DNA of 64,000 bases from Microthyrium microscopicum (taxonomy: Eukaryota). Position numbers and translations under genes: made by a program. The DNA lies in assembly GCA_010405405.1 (NCBI GenBank), contig MU004237.1:1871345-1935344 (forward strand). Reading direction: 5' to 3'. Shown here piece by piece: positions 8,701-16,330 of this stretch (positions are counted from its first letter, which is position 1; every line of letters starts with the position of its first letter). The notes beneath the pieces were generated by a model. That model saw only the letters and a list, made by a program, of their open reading frames with translations, did no database searches and had not been told where the DNA came from.

Positions 8701-8998
8701 CATTGACGCAGAGGCAGCCGAATCATCAGCTCCGCTTCCAACTGCATTATGAATATCTTTCAAGTACTGTATTGCCCGCCGAACCACTTCCTGGCCGCCA
8801 TCTGGAGAAAGTGATCTGCCTTCACTGGAAAGGATGGCATGCGCAGCACTTATCTTGGTGGGCGGGGAGCTAGCCTCTACATTGGTTAGCTCTTGTTAAC
8901 GTTAAAGACAGAATAAGCGGTTTACTTTTTATCAAGGCTGGATCAATGAAGGCAGTTGCTTGGCCAAGGACGCTGTCAAGCGCTTCAGTGCGAGACAT
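5722..8998 (-). CDS. RTP1: RNA polymerase II assembly factor Rtp1 / TANGO6 family ARM/HEAT-repeat protein
   Basis: 1021-aa ORF with family-like segments (LLRP.GVR-like PLRPEGVRG, DPEEFVYLAAIKVLSNLA, RIRTSALAIL). Reconstructed first exon 8998-8926 (MSRTEALDSVLGQATAFIDP) and 49-nt GT-AG intron 8925-8877 with GCTAAC branch join in frame to the long ORF. Confidence 0.82.
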
Positions 8999-9199
8999 GG
9001 CTATATTTATGATACTTCCAAGTCTCTCTTGCTCGGAGCAATAGGATAGAGGTTTGGCAACAACAACATTTCACTCTATACTCGTGACCTCGCAAATGTT
9101 TAATTTTTGTCAGCGAAGGAGGTAGAAGTGACGAGAACTGATCGGCAAAGATATTGCCAAAAGCGGATTTCTAGGTCACGTGCCGCGCGTCAACCTCGC

Positions 9200-10924
9200 G
9201 ATATCAAACCTTCTGAAAGCGCGTCCCCAGACTTCTTTTCCTCTCACACCCACAGCCCGCACCCAAGTCGCGCTCGATTATTTCTCTTCTTCACAGCCTT
9301 GTCTTGTCTCAATTCTTTTCGCTAATGATGTTGCTCTAGGAAGGGTTAAGATCAATTCTGAAGCCGCGCGACTGTCCCTGTCTCTCTACTACAGACCCCT
9401 AAGCATGGCCTCTCTCTACAGTTTACCGTCTCAAGTCTTCTGGCTCGCGCTGGAAATGTCTCCTGACAGCTCAATTGACCTGCACTTTCGGTTCATGTCG
9501 TGGCAGATTTAGCTTTGAAATACATGCTTCCTCCATGGCTGGGCCAGGTGCTGCAATGGTGAAAGCTATTGTAACCGGGTTTTTTGAGCGTTCACGATTC
9601 GGAACTTAACCCTAACAATCCCATATCTGCGTCTCACGGTTGTAGTTACCAGATTTTTCAGATTACTGCTTGGAGCGAAAGATTTGGTCTTGGTGAAAGC
9701 TGAGTTCCAGGTTGGAAGCGAAGGGTAGGAAATGCTAGACTTGGTGTCCGAATCAACTAGAATTGCATGCGCCTTATTGGGTTAGATTCTCAAGTGAGAA
9801 CGCGCGTCGCTTGCCTGGGCGGATATTTGACTCTGGTCAACGCTGACTGCTTTCTGGTTATCCTGCCGATAGAGAAGTGACTGACAGCTCTGGGGTCATC
9901 GCACGAAGCTTCGTTTGGAATCGCCAACCATGCCACGTACCTGATTTGGATATATCTTCGACCAGTCAGGCTTGGTTCCGGTGAAACCATTCGTTGTGGA
10001 AGGCAGTGGCATCAACTCTTTGCTTGATTTCATGCTCTTTTGTCGAATCAGGTCTTGAAAGCTTGTATCTGGTGCACGCCGACGATACAATTGCTTTTGG
10101 CATAGTCATGACCTCCGTGTTAATCGTCTCTCTTCAGAGATTACCTTTGTCGATTGATTGATGAGCGCAGATACTGCTGCTCTACTTTTTCAAGTTGACT
10201 TCAGCAATTACCTCCTGTGGGAGAAGAAAGCGGTTTTTACGGATGTTTTTTGTTCGCTTTTCAATGCCCGATGGTTGCCTTTTGGTGCCGGAGAGGAAAC
10301 AAAGACTGCCCAAAGAGGAATGCAACTACATACAGAGAGACCTTGGACGGGACAGTTGCAACGTGGATGGTTTGTGACTAATTCTTCTGAATGCAAAGGA
10401 GGTGATAACGATTGAAACAGCTCAGACCGGTTTGCGAGATCAGGCAATCAGCGCTAACTTTTATAGTATTCCTTTCAAGTCTACACTCACAAGTCTGCCT
10501 TGGTCCTCCAAGTATCAAGGAATCACTTCCAAGAACGGCAGCTGGGGTTGATGGAAGACACAATTTGGACGAACGACAAAAAGGCTGCTCAAGGATATCA
10601 AGCAAAGAAGCTGCTGGGTCAATAAGCTTTGAGGTCACGGTCAGAATATAATGGGACCTCACTCAAGTGGGAGTCAAAGTTTCGGCTTGTCCATTCGTTC
10701 TGATCGCTCGTGGTGGATGGATCCAATAGCATACTTGCCTTGGTGGGCTTGGGTGGTCGTCGGAAGTCTTTTGATTGATGTCTTTCAACGCGTATGCCAT
10801 ACTTGGGGGCCGAAGAGATGTGCTTGAAACCTTGTTTTACATTGTGCTATGTCTGACGGCGGAGGGATACACACAATTTTTTGTTACCCGCTGCCTCTGC
10901 AAGGAGGCAGCACCACTTTTTTTT
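9200..10924 (+). ncRNA. TER: Telomerase RNA (TER/TR), about 1.7 kb; 5' end approximate
   Basis: Region lacking a credible ORF. Template TAACCCTAA(C) at 9607-9616. GAAA-capped hairpins at 9552-9573 and about 9690-9705. Long-range pairing of 9214-9267 with 10739-10787. Sm-like site AATTTTTTG at 10875-10883. 8-bp stem at 10890-10911. U-tract followed by ATAAGT (10925), GCTAAC (10958) and CAG (10973). Confidence 0.85.
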
Positions 10925-10973
10925 ATAAGTAACCCTCAGTCTCTCCGTTCGCAATGTGCTAACTACGTGACAG
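10925..10973 (+). other. TER 3'-terminal intron with non-canonical ATAAGT 5' splice site (predicted spliceosomal cleavage site)
   Basis: ATAAGT at 10925-10930, branch GCTAAC at 10958-10963, acceptor CAG at 10971-10973; 49-nt length matches ordinary introns in this window. Confidence 0.8.
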
Positions 10974-11844
10974 GAAAGTGTGTCTTCAGCTGATGTTCCC
11001 ATACTCTCTTCAATTCTGGCTTGACATTCTGGGTTTTACCCGTCCACTGCCTTCTCGAATAGACAAACTCTGATTCAATTCGATTTAAAAGTACTGTTCA
11101 TGTCCCATGTAGAAATCCTCATCTTTGTCAACTCTTGGCTCAAGCTCGAAGCCACTCTGAGCAACTCCATAGTATCGATGGTTGTAGCACAACAGAGCGT
11201 ATGCCCTCTTACGCATGTACTCATGCGGTTCACAATCATATCATTAGGAGCACTCGGACAGCAACCACTCGGCCAGTTTTTGAGACCAATTTGAGCTGCC
11301 CTCCTCGTCAAGCTTCAGGCCCTATGGACTAGGTAAAGCTGTGCTCTCAGGATGTGCTGTGATCTGTCCTGCGTATATCCCACTATGGAAAGATTGAAGA
11401 GAAAATGAAGACTAAATCATACAGAAAGTGCGCTGGCTACTTGCAGATGCTTTACATGCAGCAGGCATGTCTGCTCGGTAACGAATCAACTGCCAGCATC
11501 ACTAAAAATGCTCCCATCAGGCTGAGATTCCATTTTAATCTTTTGAATCGTTATTGTTGCAAAGACAAGAATTCCAAAAGGCTTTCGTCCAACTTGTTTC
11601 TGCTTCAACAATACTAAAAATGTTTTTCTTCTTGTAGAATCACATCTCGGAGGTGGTTTAAAGCACATGCCACCTCGGATGAACCAACCCGCCGATCTTC
11701 ACTCATTGTTTCGTCGCGGGAACCCTCTCAAGAATGACCACATCGCCATTTCGTCTCTTCCCTTTTCATTCATGATCAGTCATCCTCAGCTGCAGCGCTA
11801 AATCATATCACTCATCGTTATCAACACCGCTCACAGTTATCAAC

Positions 11845-12306
11845 ATGTCTTTCACCCTACCAGAAAATTTCCACATCCTTTCCATTCCATTCTACTGGGG
11901 CCTAGCCATATTACCTCACGGTTATGCAATCCACCTTGCGACCGGTGGCAATGCATTGAAATGGGACAACCGCAATCCACGAACCACCAACCACCGTGCG
12001 AACGTTAAAAGCAGACTCAGCCCCGAAAACTTTGCTCTTTATGAAAGGGCAGAAGCTGCCTCTGCCAATGCTTTTGAAAACCTACCCATCTTTGCCTCTG
12101 CTGTGATCATTGGCCGGATGGCAGGACTCAGCAAGACCGTGCTGGATGACTTTGCAATGAAGTTCTTGCTTGCGCGAGCAGGGCATTCTCTCAGCTATCT
12201 TCTGATCAACAACTCGAGACTCGCAGCTATTCGGACAGTGTTCTATTTTTACAGCATTGGGCTATGTATCAGAGTTATGGTCAAGGCGGCGAAGACACTG
12301 CCTTGA
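11845..12306 (+). CDS. MAPEG superfamily membrane protein (153 aa)
   Basis: WDNRNPR and RAEAASANAFENLPIFASAV motifs, FLLARAGHSLSY, several hydrophobic helices. Confidence 0.85.
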   Translation: MSFTLPENFHILSIPFYWGLAILPHGYAIHLATGGNALKWDNRNPRTTNHRANVKSRLSPENFALYERAEAASANAFENLPIFASAVIIGRMAGLSKTVLDDFAMKFLLARAGHSLSYLLINNSRLAAIRTVFYFYSIGLCIRVMVKAAKTLP

Positions 12307-13313
12307 AGTTTTCGGATGCCAAGAGCTGGTTTGCCCCTTTCGTTGACATCGGCAATTCCATCAAAGTGTATAATAGTGGGTGAAGCTATGTCGAGGCGAA
12401 AACATCTATGTATCAACAATATATCGTCAGATGATGCTTCAAACACATGTTTTGGAACTGAGGCTGTACCTCTAATAAAAGACCTGAAACCCAAACATTC
12501 AATATATACAAAGTCTAAATATCAGAAGCTGTCTTGGCTGTTGATCATCCTATGTCGATCGCACTTCTAAGGGTCCATATTCATTCGGTCTTATAGTCAA
12601 GCTACTCAGATATCATCGGGGGTTAGCAGTGGTGTATAGTTTGATATGACAATTTTCCAGATACATAGATTGGGGACCAATTGGGTTGGTTTCCCCGCGT
12701 TCTTCTTCCCGGGTGTGTTACATGATTTTTTAAGCTTATTACATTAAGATATTATACTAAGACTGCCCTTGCGTGCGAGTTGGTACGTTCCTGTGGCATA
12801 TTTGGCGACCCAATTAACTGTAAACTGCGGTTAGAACCGTTGACCCAGTACAATTGTCCTTACTAAACCTTATTGAGTCTCTCGCTCTTTTACGCTTCAT
12901 AAATCCACTGGCAATGAACCCTACAATATTGCAGATCTAATGAATATCTACTGTAAGGATCCACAATGATCTACTTACCCTCCCGTGCATAAAACATCTG
13001 TACGAGCGTTCGATAACCAATAAAAGGAACCAGAAAGTTGTTTGAAACATGCTAAAGTACAGACCATCAGATCAGGCCAGTGAAAACACCAGGTAAAACC
13101 ATCTGAGCCCACAATAGACGAGACAAGTCAATATCATTCAAAGTACCTCTGCAAATGAACAGACCACTTGTCTCCTAGATCCAGATATAGCTAAAGCTTA
13201 CAGTGCGTCGGAATGATGCTTTGCCCTTGCACGTACCAAGAAATGGTGGCCAACAATGATATTCTGATAGTCATTAATAGCTTCAAATTGTGAAAGATGG
13301 TTATCTCGTACTG

Positions 13314-13323: not shown

Positions 13324-13418
13324 ACCTCCAAGTCCGACTGGAAAACCATCAGTCAATCAAACCAACAATCAAACATACTCTCCTCTACATACTCACAGAA
13401 CAATACACATTCATCATC

Positions 13419-14057
13419 ATGAAGTTCCAATACGCAACTATGGCTCTTGCCGCCCTCGCCATGGCCCTTCCTCAAGCTCCAGATGGACATGACGGACACA
13501 AGATGGCCGTCCAAAAGCGCCAACATGATGGCCACCCAATGCCAGCTCCACCAAATGCCGTCAATGACAAGCGACAAGCACCACCCGCTCCACCACCAAA
13601 GGGCCCACCAAAGGGCCCAAAAGGACCCGGCGGTCCAAAGCCACCTATGCCACCACCAACAATGACCAAGCGTCAAGATATGCCACACGACGGCCACAAG
13701 ATGCCAGTGCAAAAGCGTCACTCGCCAGATGATGGTATGCCAATGCCCGGCCCCAAGATCAACGAGAAGAGACAAGCTCCTCCACCAAAAGCTCCAATGC
13801 CACCTCATCTTGCGGAGAGACAAGCTCCTCCACCAAAGGCGCCTATGCCACCTCACCTTTCTGAGCGACAGGCACCACCACCAAAGGCTCCAATGCCACC
13901 TCATCTTTCTGAGCGACAGGCACCACCACCAAAGGCGCCAATGCCACCTCATCTTTCTGAGCGCCAGGCTCCTCCACCAAAGGCTCCAATGCCACCTCAT
14001 CTGTCTGAGCGACAGGCGCCACCACCAAAGGCTCCATCGCCACCACACATCAACTAG
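13419..14057 (+). CDS. Secreted Kex2-processed repeat protein (KEP), peptide precursor, 212 aa
   Basis: Signal peptide MKFQYATMALAALAMA; five KR sites, four followed by Q; then tandem QAPPPKAPMPPHL[A/S]ER units; no Cys and no enzyme domain. Confidence 0.85.
   Translation: MKFQYATMALAALAMALPQAPDGHDGHKMAVQKRQHDGHPMPAPPNAVNDKRQAPPAPPPKGPPKGPKGPGGPKPPMPPPTMTKRQDMPHDGHKMPVQKRHSPDDGMPMPGPKINEKRQAPPPKAPMPPHLAERQAPPPKAPMPPHLSERQAPPPKAPMPPHLSERQAPPPKAPMPPHLSERQAPPPKAPMPPHLSERQAPPPKAPSPPHIN
13773..14054 (+). repeat. 48-nt coding tandem repeat (five full copies plus one truncated)
   Basis: Units start at 13773, 13821, 13869, 13917, 13965 and 14013; mostly synonymous variation between copies. Confidence 0.95.
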
Positions 14058-14329: not shown

Positions 14330-16330
14330 TCATCCTGTCTCTTCCATTTCATATCCTGCATCTGAGGCGTAATGAATCAATTCGCCTTCTGCATATCTGA
14401 CTAATATGGGCTCGTCTGTTTGCTGAGATGTGGGATCAAAAACTGGGGAGTCTGGTAGCCCAACTGATTGAACATTCATCTCGGCGGCCTTGTTAACGAG
14501 TCGGTATTGTTTGATGAGTTTAATTCGTTCGCGGGCCATTTCCATCATCTCGATTTCAGAGTCGGGATACAGATTTGACGATTCCTTGAAAAGAGTCAGG
14601 CACCGATCAGGTTGATCTTCCATGTGATGAACTGCAATTGCCAAAGCATACAGTCTTTTCGGTATGCTATGGCCATGAATTGAGAGGCGATCTGCCTGTC
14701 GCCAGATCTCGTGGCAATAATCGTAGGTAGCATCTACGCCGGCTTGGAACATAAGAATATAAATGCAAGGAAAGTCAAGTGTCCAGCCGAATGGCATAAG
14801 ATCGAGCGAGAATTTCCAAGCCGTATCTAGGCCGGCAAATTGGACTAGGCCGAGTACTATCTCGAGGAATGTGAGTGGAGATGGTACAGTTGCTTGCACA
14901 ACCTTGTTCGTGCCTAGCATGAAACAACGTCCTTGGCTCTTGTGTAGGTTGTTGATTGTCTTGAACCAAGGCTTGGCCAGCATAAGCCCACGATCTTGTC
15001 CTCTCATAAGTTTGATGTATTGCATAAACTGATCACCGTCCCCAGCTCGTCGGTAGTGCCGCAGGACTGACGAGCAAGTGATCTCGTTAGGTCGAAGGTT
15101 TGCGTCGAAAAGCATTGATACAAGAGGTTCAGTCAATTCTAGTCGCTTGTGGCGAAGGAACGCTGTGAAAATGCAGTTGACAGTGTGTATGGTTGGTGGC
15201 TCCTCTGATGCCAGTAATTCTGCACTGATGCGGGCGATTGTTGAGGGAGTGATGGCCCCTTTCTCATGGAATATTGATGATAGCTTCAGGAGTGATTTAG
15301 TTTCGAAACTGTGATTGGGGTTGAAGCGTGGAATTGGGACGTCGAATTGTAGATGTGCCAAAGGTTCATCTTCATCGTTCACGAACGAGTGTAGTCGGAA
15401 AAGTTCCAGCTCTAATTGTTGAAGTGCGAAGTCGGACTGTTGCCGCGAAAGTGATGCATAATGCTGGACTGACTGAGGTAGAGATTCAACGATCTCTCGT
15501 GGTTGATCGGTAAAACCAGCGATTTGAAATAGCTGGAGCACCAGTCTCGCTGTGCATATTTCGACAGTCCGCAGTTTTTTCCAAGTCCATCTTGCAGGTG
15601 GCCCGAGGTGCCGCGGTCTTGGACGGGCCCATGGTGACTGCGGTGGCAGGTTGTGTACGGCAACTCCTTCGCGGCCAGGAATATTTGGTGCACTTGGCAT
15701 CTCTGGTTTCCAGCGGTACAGAGAGAAAGAACCTAATCTGTTTCCTGATTGTGAATCTCTGTCGCGTTCGATCGCTTCAACTGCATCATGTGCATCTGCA
15801 AGCTCCGCTTCTAGACTATGTAGTGCATCAATTGCAGAGTGGCCAGATTGTATTTCCTTGCTATTTCGGGAGGCATGATCCTTTGAAACTTTGCTAAATT
15901 GTACCTCGAGCACTTCATTCTCAGAGGCTAATTGGATAATCTTGCTGTCCGTATTTTCCAACGATTTCAAGGCCTCCAGCGGAGAGTCCTTGGTGTTCCC
16001 CAGAGCCGGGTCCTCTACAGTTATGCCAAAACGTGCCTTGAGAAGTTCTTGAGCTCGTTGAGCTACAGCTTCCTCTGCGGCTTCCACCTCCTTCTTCTTT
16101 TGTGCAATTGCTTCTTCCCATTGTTTGCGCCTTTGGACTCTGCGTACGGTGTCAATTGCCGTGGCATATCCGAAAATCATGGTATAAACGTAGGTAGAAG
16201 TAGGAAACGCTTTCGATCGCATCGATTGGTACCCATTGCGGGCGGATTGAGGTGGGCCATGCTGTGCTCTACACGCCGAACAAGAACATCCGAACTGGCA
16301 AATCCGGGTCCAGAGGCCTCTCAGAGCCAT
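14330..16330 (-). CDS. Pentatricopeptide-repeat (PPR) protein, probably mitochondrial (666 aa)
   Basis: PPR-like helices PTIHTVNCIFTAF and LRPNEITCSSVLRHY; Arg-rich, acid-free N-terminus. Confidence 0.7.
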   Translation of the reverse strand: MALRGLWTRICQFGCSCSACRAQHGPPQSARNGYQSMRSKAFPTSTYVYTMIFGYATAIDTVRRVQRRKQWEEAIAQKKKEVEAAEEAVAQRAQELLKARFGITVEDPALGNTKDSPLEALKSLENTDSKIIQLASENEVLEVQFSKVSKDHASRNSKEIQSGHSAIDALHSLEAELADAHDAVEAIERDRDSQSGNRLGSFSLYRWKPEMPSAPNIPGREGVAVHNLPPQSPWARPRPRHLGPPARWTWKKLRTVEICTARLVLQLFQIAGFTDQPREIVESLPQSVQHYASLSRQQSDFALQQLELELFRLHSFVNDEDEPLAHLQFDVPIPRFNPNHSFETKSLLKLSSIFHEKGAITPSTIARISAELLASEEPPTIHTVNCIFTAFLRHKRLELTEPLVSMLFDANLRPNEITCSSVLRHYRRAGDGDQFMQYIKLMRGQDRGLMLAKPWFKTINNLHKSQGRCFMLGTNKVVQATVPSPLTFLEIVLGLVQFAGLDTAWKFSLDLMPFGWTLDFPCIYILMFQAGVDATYDYCHEIWRQADRLSIHGHSIPKRLYALAIAVHHMEDQPDRCLTLFKESSNLYPDSEIEMMEMARERIKLIKQYRLVNKAAEMNVQSVGLPDSPVFDPTSQQTDEPILVRYAEGELIHYASDAGYEMEETG

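Follow-up and report, generated by a model that had tools for sequence, protein, structure and literature searches.

A terminal AT-AG intron as the probable 3'-end former of an Aspergillus-like telomerase RNA gene in Microthyrium microscopicum

Results and discussion

The 64-kb stretch of Microthyrium microscopicum contig MU004237.1 analyzed here (the window) very probably carries an Aspergillus-like (Pezizomycotina) telomerase RNA (TER) gene whose body ends at position 10924 and is followed, at 10925–10973, by a terminal intron that undergoes the first splicing step only. The initial annotation had proposed that this AT-AG element forms the 3' end of an RNA by incomplete splicing, and the proposal is supported by the TER context, by 28 of 39 relatives, and by a published Aspergillus alignment. 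What can be read directly from the data are the sequence elements themselves, their conservation across the family, the identity of the gene as TER, and the unspliced state in which an assembled contig of complementary DNA (cDNA)-like origin carries the locus. Fungi in which a crippled intron serves to cut RNA ends thus gain one lineage more; the mechanism is known already in Aspergillus and Neurospora, and the window is an ordinary further case of it. In addition, the 3' boundary of a TER gene is fixed in what seemed to be an empty gap separating two protein genes. The sole feature that we consider worth a bench test is an Sm-like site that stands apart from the cut, upstream of the terminal hairpin.

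The 3' module

Direct reading of the sequence confirmed each element of the module that had been annotated: an Sm-like site AATTTTTTG at 10875–10883; a perfect hairpin of 8 bp with arms GCTGCCTC (10890–10897) and GAGGCAGC (10904–10911) and 6 nucleotides (nt) between them; a U-tract consisting of ACCAC and then T8; the donor ATAAGT, with A in first place; and a 49-nt element with the branch sequence GCTAAC at 10958–10963 (GCTAACT spans 10958–10964) and a CAG acceptor that ends at 10973. One copy of AATTTTTTG is found on the two strands of the window, with 1.06 expected, and this copy lies 6 nt 5' of the hairpin. The hairpin is the only inverted repeat found within 10800–10990, and if a U-G closing pair is admitted it comprises 9 bp around a GCAA loop. 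The last 62 nt fold with a z score of -4.38, a stability that none of 200 shuffled sequences equaled, and the ACCAC + U8 tail is unpaired in the folds.

The donor of filamentous-fungal TERs has been defined as AUA(A/C)GU directly after a pyrimidine- or U-rich tract at the 3' end of the RNA. In the window, ATAAGT directly follows T8 and stands 240 nt 3' of the junction pattern described below, and the GCTAACT branch and CAG acceptor are the same elements that are seen in relatives and in Aspergilli. The bare pattern ATAAGT..CTAAC..YAG is not rare, with one match in the window against 0.23 expected and at least one match in 17 of 100 shuffles; once a T5 prefix and GCTAAC are included, the window still has its one match and none of 100 shuffles has any. 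A GTAACC at 10929–10934, 4 nt inside the AT-AG element, could be a weak cryptic donor of the G-first kind.

Identity of the gene as telomerase RNA

How the 3' module is to be interpreted depends wholly on the upstream sequence being TER. Four blocks of the TER family follow one another on the plus strand in the expected order, namely, template, candidate pseudoknot block, P6/P6.1 junction, and 3' module (Table 1). A TER of this family is expected to have a template comprising about 1.5 TTAGGG-complementary repeats within a conserved flank and a CR4/5 junction whose P6.1 stem has 4 bp. The template TAACCCTAAC has its sole match in the 64-kb window at this place (0.09 expected), and the window and the metagenome relatives have in common both the template and its CGGAACT flank. 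From template to junction the distance is 1046 nt in the window, compared with 1023–1476 nt in relatives, where the template is likewise upstream. The P6/P6.1 junction is a local match to the Rfam family RF02462 (20.2 bits, E 0.0012), and P5, P6, and P6.1 are all recovered in the minimum-energy fold of 10600–10924. The pseudoknot region (10230–10310) gives a weak local match to the same family (12.4 bits, E 0.28), and the block at 10290–10306 is also present, as judged by eye, in the Aspergillus terreus row of the published alignment. The gene appears transcribed and noncoding: a contig of the sequencing run X1 covers it, and no stop-to-stop open reading frame (ORF) longer than 126 amino acids is found within 9000–11300.

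Conservation among metagenome relatives

Relatives were collected by scanning metagenome contigs for the junction pattern, which yielded 78 loci. Thirty-nine of these are TER-like, meaning that they have the junction sequence in common and, where the flank is long enough, a template 1023–1476 nt upstream. The 39 loci that are not TER-like were dropped before all counts and consist mostly of one recurring 33-mer, the others being single chance matches. This 33-base match is identical in L001–L004, L007, L014, and about 25 more loci, which have neither template nor donor; evidently it comes from a conserved part of some unrelated, probably bacterial, gene. The TER-like relatives are distant, since none of them shares the P6 sequence of the window.

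An AT[AG]AGT donor is present 120–400 nt after the junction in 28 of the 39 TER-like loci, of which 27 read ATAAGT, one reads ATGAGT, and none begins with G. Among the 24 unique sequences, the window included, the corresponding numbers are 23, 1, and 0. The adenine at intron position +1 is invariant in an alignment of 21 rows, and the distance from junction pattern to donor, 240 nt in the window, is 160–240 nt in the relatives. The sole ATGAGT donor belongs to L078 (1303–1370, minus strand), where it comes after CCCCUCC, U8, and CG, and where A still stands first. In nine of the 11 loci without a donor, the downstream DNA extends for 162 nt or less, not far enough for a donor to be seen.

In the relatives, the hairpin that closely precedes the donor shows strong covariation, with compensatory changes at 9 of its 10 predicted pairs, and in the alignment its 3' arm coincides with that of the hairpin in the window. 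Beyond it, most relatives, which are probably nearer to the Neurospora group, continue with CCCCUCC, a short loop that is U-rich or of other sequence, and GGAG or GGGG ending at the cut. The small terminal hairpin so formed is absent from the window, whose plain C-rich stretch and U-run tail resembles the tails of L073 and L078 instead. Looking at the last 16 or so nt before the donor (in L005, L009, L012, L023, L051, L063, and others), we saw that the 3' arm of this small hairpin stops exactly at the cut and that its arms pair as CUCC/GGAG, CCCC/GGGG, CCCG/CGGG, or CCCUU/AAGGG; the register, assessed only by eye, varies by row. The loop resembles an Sm site (AUUUUUGG) in several relatives, and others are without any U-run.

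Comparison with the Aspergillus module

The published alignment shows the module in ten rows, from Aspergillus and Neosartorya: a hairpin rich in GC with a loop of four bases, then CCC or CCCC, U6–10, a spacer of 1–3 bases, ATAAGT, and GCTAACT, the last of which reads GCTGACT in A. terreus (Kuprys 2013, PMC3603654). The order of hairpin, C-rich stretch, U-tract, AUAAGU, and GCUAAC(U) is thus common to Aspergillus TER and the window. What that study names the "Sm site" is CGGC3-5U7-12, and its counterpart in the window is the hairpin's 3' arm together with the C-rich/U-rich tail. The likeness extends to detail: the N. fischeri and A. clavatus rows have, like the window, an intron starting with ATAAGTAACC, and the A. 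fumigatus, N. fischeri, and A. clavatus rows share with it a junction starting with GGGACCTCAC and an L6.1 loop of 4 nt. Because intron start, junction start, and L6.1 loop match, we consider the gene Aspergillus-like in type; because its junction reads GAGUCAAAG, whereas that of the Aspergilli reads GGAUCAAAG, we place it outside those species of the Aspergillus group. Two further differences were noted. A C(U)U or U spacer precedes the donor in the Aspergilli, while the U8 of the window abuts it directly, and 5' of the hairpin the Aspergilli have a conserved stretch of the GUGAAC type with no U-run, where the window has AAUUUUUUG 6 nt before the hairpin.

Assembled contigs of run X1

One run, X1, contains the locus; it is labeled RNA by guess only, its record not stating RNA. 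Contig 1 of this run skips 8877–8925, a stretch with CT..AC ends that correspond to GT..AG on the minus strand, and the X1 material looks cDNA-derived because the contig lacks this GT..AG intron. The skipped stretch is a 49-nt intron of a gene of the RTP1 type with a GCTAAC branch, that is, it has the same length and branch sequence as the AT-AG element. At 9074, contig 1 runs into adapter sequence and stops. Contig 2 spans 9351–12526 unbroken, with 10925–10973 retained and no joint anywhere; in particular, it has no 10924/10974 joint, contigs being apt to lose rare forms. Contig 2 joins TER, the unspliced terminal element, an 870-nt gap, and the MAPEG gene downstream. Its part beyond the intron (10974–12526) is either the 3' exon of a precursor with read-through into MAPEG or a merger, by the assembler, of separate overlapping transcripts. 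Two stretches of the examined region are without X1 cover, and nothing was drawn from them.

Observations that weigh against this assignment

Several results count against reading the locus as a TER gene with a first-step-only intron. No Rfam family reached its gathering score in the scan of the window, and the best local match to RF02462, at 20.2 bits, lies under the 30-bit cut-off of that family. This failure is probably due to the fact that TERs align across classes in their core blocks only, the variable regions being unalignable (Qi 2012). The junction pattern used to collect relatives was built from the window and the Rfam consensus and therefore favors lineages that read GAGUCAAAG, and the P6 sequence of the window was found in none of them. 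A covariance model built from the 21 relatives alone, with the window left out (model R1), had no match in the window with default filters. With filters off, 10883–10930 ranked first in the whole window, at only 10.1 bits and an E value of 1.1; this speaks in favor of the assignment as positional agreement and is not significant alone. L061 and L072 have 386 and 377 nt of downstream sequence, respectively, long enough to show a donor, and no A-first donor was found in either. Finally, the contigs show no ends, strand, or level and drop rare forms, and the retained element fits a blocked second step and equally a sequence that is no intron.

On the two long donorless loci some additional observations can be given. 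L072 forms one lineage with L060 and L010, all three TER-like without an A-first donor, and its sequence is unrelated for the 377 nt directly after the small terminal hairpin; it could be a spliced contig of the cDNA type or represent a lineage that makes its end another way. L061 ceases to resemble its relatives some 130 nt beyond the junction, and its contig may be chimeric.

Cleavage and the mature 3' end

For the cleavage itself, for what blocks the second step, for where the mature RNA ends, and for any binding of proteins, we lean on published work on relatives. The initial annotation had stated that the AUAAGU donor of Pezizomycotina TER permits the first splicing step and disfavors ligation, and this is borne out by experiments in which an A. 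niger module was placed in Schizosaccharomyces pombe TER1: the cleaved form was dominant and the spliced form barely detectable, but an A1G change lowered the cleaved form more than 10-fold and made the spliced form dominant, so that A1 is what blocks exon ligation (Kannan 2015, PMC4299874). Later papers describe spliceosomal cleavage and a distinct 5' splice site for filamentous-fungal TERs. A 2016 review still treats the biogenesis pathway of these RNAs as undetermined, and our literature search returned no paper that settles it. Spliceosomal cleavage has reportedly been described for the TER of Neurospora crassa and other Pezizomycotina by Qi et al. in 2015.

By analogy, transcription by RNA polymerase II would continue beyond the TER gene, and the spliceosome would recognize AUAAGU, the GCUAAC branch with A10962, and the CAG acceptor. 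The branching step would then cut between U10924 and A10925, and the adenine at intron position 1 would block exon ligation, so that the 5' exon would be freed as telomerase RNA. The freed RNA would end in the U-tract, possibly nibbled by a few nucleotides, and the hairpin at 10890–10911, together with proteins on one or both of the U-rich tracts, would guard it from more decay. S. pombe TER1, too, acquires its 3' end, as proposed here, through the first splicing step only, and a U-rich Sm/Lsm site is near the cut; unlike that of the window, its donor begins with G, and other features of the intron block its second step.

The mature end had been placed exactly at 10924, which by comparison with published ends is probably too exact. 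Since those ends are ragged within the U-rich tract, we prefer to read 10924 as the cleavage point, beyond which no mature RNA would extend, and mature ends would be expected across roughly 10917–10924. One refinement, not a true rival, is that the RNA is cut at 10924/10925 and that an exonuclease then trims U8, and we give it about an even chance. The ends would in this case be ragged within 10912–10923 or lie at the foot of the hairpin, as with the 3' extensions of small nuclear RNAs (snRNAs) after assembly of the Sm core. The 3' ends of A. oryzae TER vary within 6 nt (Kuprys 2013, PMC3603654), RNAs made from the A. niger module terminate inside the U-rich "Sm site" (Kannan 2015, PMC4299874), and in S. 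cryophilus and S. octosporus TER the 5' splice site is preceded by the ends at distances of 14 and 27 nt; nothing in the window counts against trimming.

Alternatively, transcription might terminate, or the RNA be polyadenylated, farther downstream, with the exosome trimming the product back to the hairpin or the Sm-like site as modeled on the Nrd1-Nab3-Sen1 pathway of Saccharomyces cerevisiae, and with the intron signals unused or kept as a back-up. The unspliced X1 contig running far beyond the element, to 12526, would fit such a route, as would the resemblance of the Sm-like site and hairpin to the 3' end of snRNAs, which needs no spliceosome, and the existence of L061 and L072 as TER-like loci without a donor. 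Against this, the +1 A, GCUAAC, and YAG are kept in distant relatives, none of whose 28 donors is G-first, and in Aspergilli, which is hard to explain if they are unused, and the A. niger module was both necessary and sufficient for cleavage in the test host (Kannan 2015, PMC4299874). We consider this route improbable.

Less probable still, and in our view barely tenable, is an ordinary or alternative intron within a long transcript into MAPEG, spliced inefficiently from the A-first donor or from GTAACC at 10929. A single contig does join 9351–12526, and GTAACC does lie 4 nt inside the element, but a contig over two genes is no proof of a single transcript, this contig has no joint at the element, and the sequence upstream is telomerase RNA rather than a 5' untranslated region. 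A chance constellation of short motifs without function, to which the frequency of the bare pattern and a second, unrelated ATAAGT match in a looser scan might lend color, is very unlikely to the point of being negligible, as no shuffle matches once the U-tract and GCTAAC are required, the donor position after the TER junction agrees with that in relatives, the module matches the published Aspergillus alignment, and the whole TER assignment would have to fail.

The Sm-like site and the two U-rich tracts

With a hairpin between two U-rich tracts, the initial annotation had left it open which of them binds Sm or Lsm proteins. We used the consensus AU5-6GR (A, 5–6 U, G, and a purine, in single-stranded RNA). 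Positions 10875–10884 read AAUUUUUUGU, which fits AU5-6G but has U where the consensus has a purine, and the U-run of this candidate site is unpaired in centroid folds. Among the 24 unique sequences, A(1-2)U(5+)G occurs internally, 5' of the hairpin or hairpins, in 4 (the window, L026, L051, and L073) and a terminal T-run of at least 4 in 14, and the rows of the published Aspergillus alignment have no U-run before the hairpin. Neither U-rich tract is universal, then; the hairpin and the A-first donor are. Our literature search returned no paper that settles the choice of tract by Sm, Lsm2-8, or La-type proteins in filamentous fungi.

Small nuclear RNAs have a 3' domain made of an Sm site and then a terminal stem-loop. 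The window may be likened to this arrangement in that AAU6G precedes a stable terminal hairpin, and it differs in that the RNA is TER, its end would be set by a cut at a splice site, a U8 tail follows, and U rather than a purine comes after the G. In S. pombe, there is a single Sm site, which has one nucleotide in common with the 5' splice site, whereas the canonical-looking site of the window is 41 nt upstream, behind the hairpin. As a tentative proposal, which we think rather unlikely to hold, the 3' domain may have two sites, an AAU6G candidate Sm site before the hairpin and a separate U8-OH tail, made by the spliceosome, that would suit Lsm2-8 or a La-type protein. If this were true, two protein complexes could occupy separate sites at once, in contrast to the successive occupation of one site in S. 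pombe. The internal site would then be a lineage-variable form of end protection, because it is found in three distant lineages and the window and is absent from Aspergillus. With a hairpin standing between a canonical-looking Sm site and a terminal U-tract, the locus is a natural construct for mutation of each tract by itself.

Coordinates, neighboring genes, and other observations

The coordinates of the features are collected in Table 1. The 5' limit of the gene body, 9351, is the left edge of an assembled contig and no mapped start, and its 3' limit, 10924, is the predicted cleavage point.

Table 1. Features of the telomerase RNA locus, in coordinates of the 64-kb window
Feature	Position	Strand	Remarks
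Telomerase RNA gene body	9351..10924	+	X1 contig 2 cover; no long ORF; four family blocks in order
Template TAACCCTAAC for TTAGGG repeats	9607..9616	+	Conserved flank CGGAACT just before
A-rich candidate pseudoknot block GGAGAGGAAACAAAGAC	10290..10306	+	Weak RF02462 local match; by-eye match to A. terreus row
P6/P6.1 three-way junction (CR4/5), 4-nt L6.1 loop	10653..10688	+	RF02462 local match; fold
Sm-like site AAUUUUUUG	10875..10883	+	Followed by U, not purine; sole copy in window
3' hairpin of 8 bp, or 9 bp if U-G is counted	10890..10911	+	GCAA loop in 9-bp form
ACCAC + U8, tail of 5' exon	10912..10924	+	Likely zone of mature, possibly trimmed, 3' ends
49-nt AT-AG terminal intron (probable)	10925..10973	+	Donor 10925-10930, branch A 10962, acceptor CAG 10971-10973
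Sequence 3' of intron covered by X1 contig 2	10974..12526	+	Runs through MAPEG gene

The neighbors of the TER gene are the RTP1-type gene on the minus strand and the MAPEG gene on the plus strand, the latter with an ORF at 11845–12306 (plus strand) that matches Pfam PF01124 with an E value of 1.6e-11. For the promoter motif of Aspergillus, CRCGDCGCG, one mismatch being allowed, there were 50 matches against 39 expected, and the nearest, at 9264, carries no weight.

A number of other candidates were set aside. The second match of the looser scan, ATAAGT..CTGAC..TAG at 15006–15090, was judged to be due to chance, having no U-tract and no TER context. A match to Rothia-sucC (21.4 bits) amounts to the hairpin and ACCACUU read as a stem like that of a bacterial terminator and is at chance level, as are the matches to MIR9666, TCL6_1, and rli32 in focused Rfam scans of 10690–11000 and 9300–10300. 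A bacterial terminator call on the hairpin and T-run is irrelevant for a eukaryotic gene of RNA polymerase II. Farther downstream, an ORF at 13416–14057 on the plus strand, without a Pfam match, has a proline-rich product in which a unit resembling ERQAPPPKAPMPPHLS is repeated about five times in tandem, and X1 contigs cover it.

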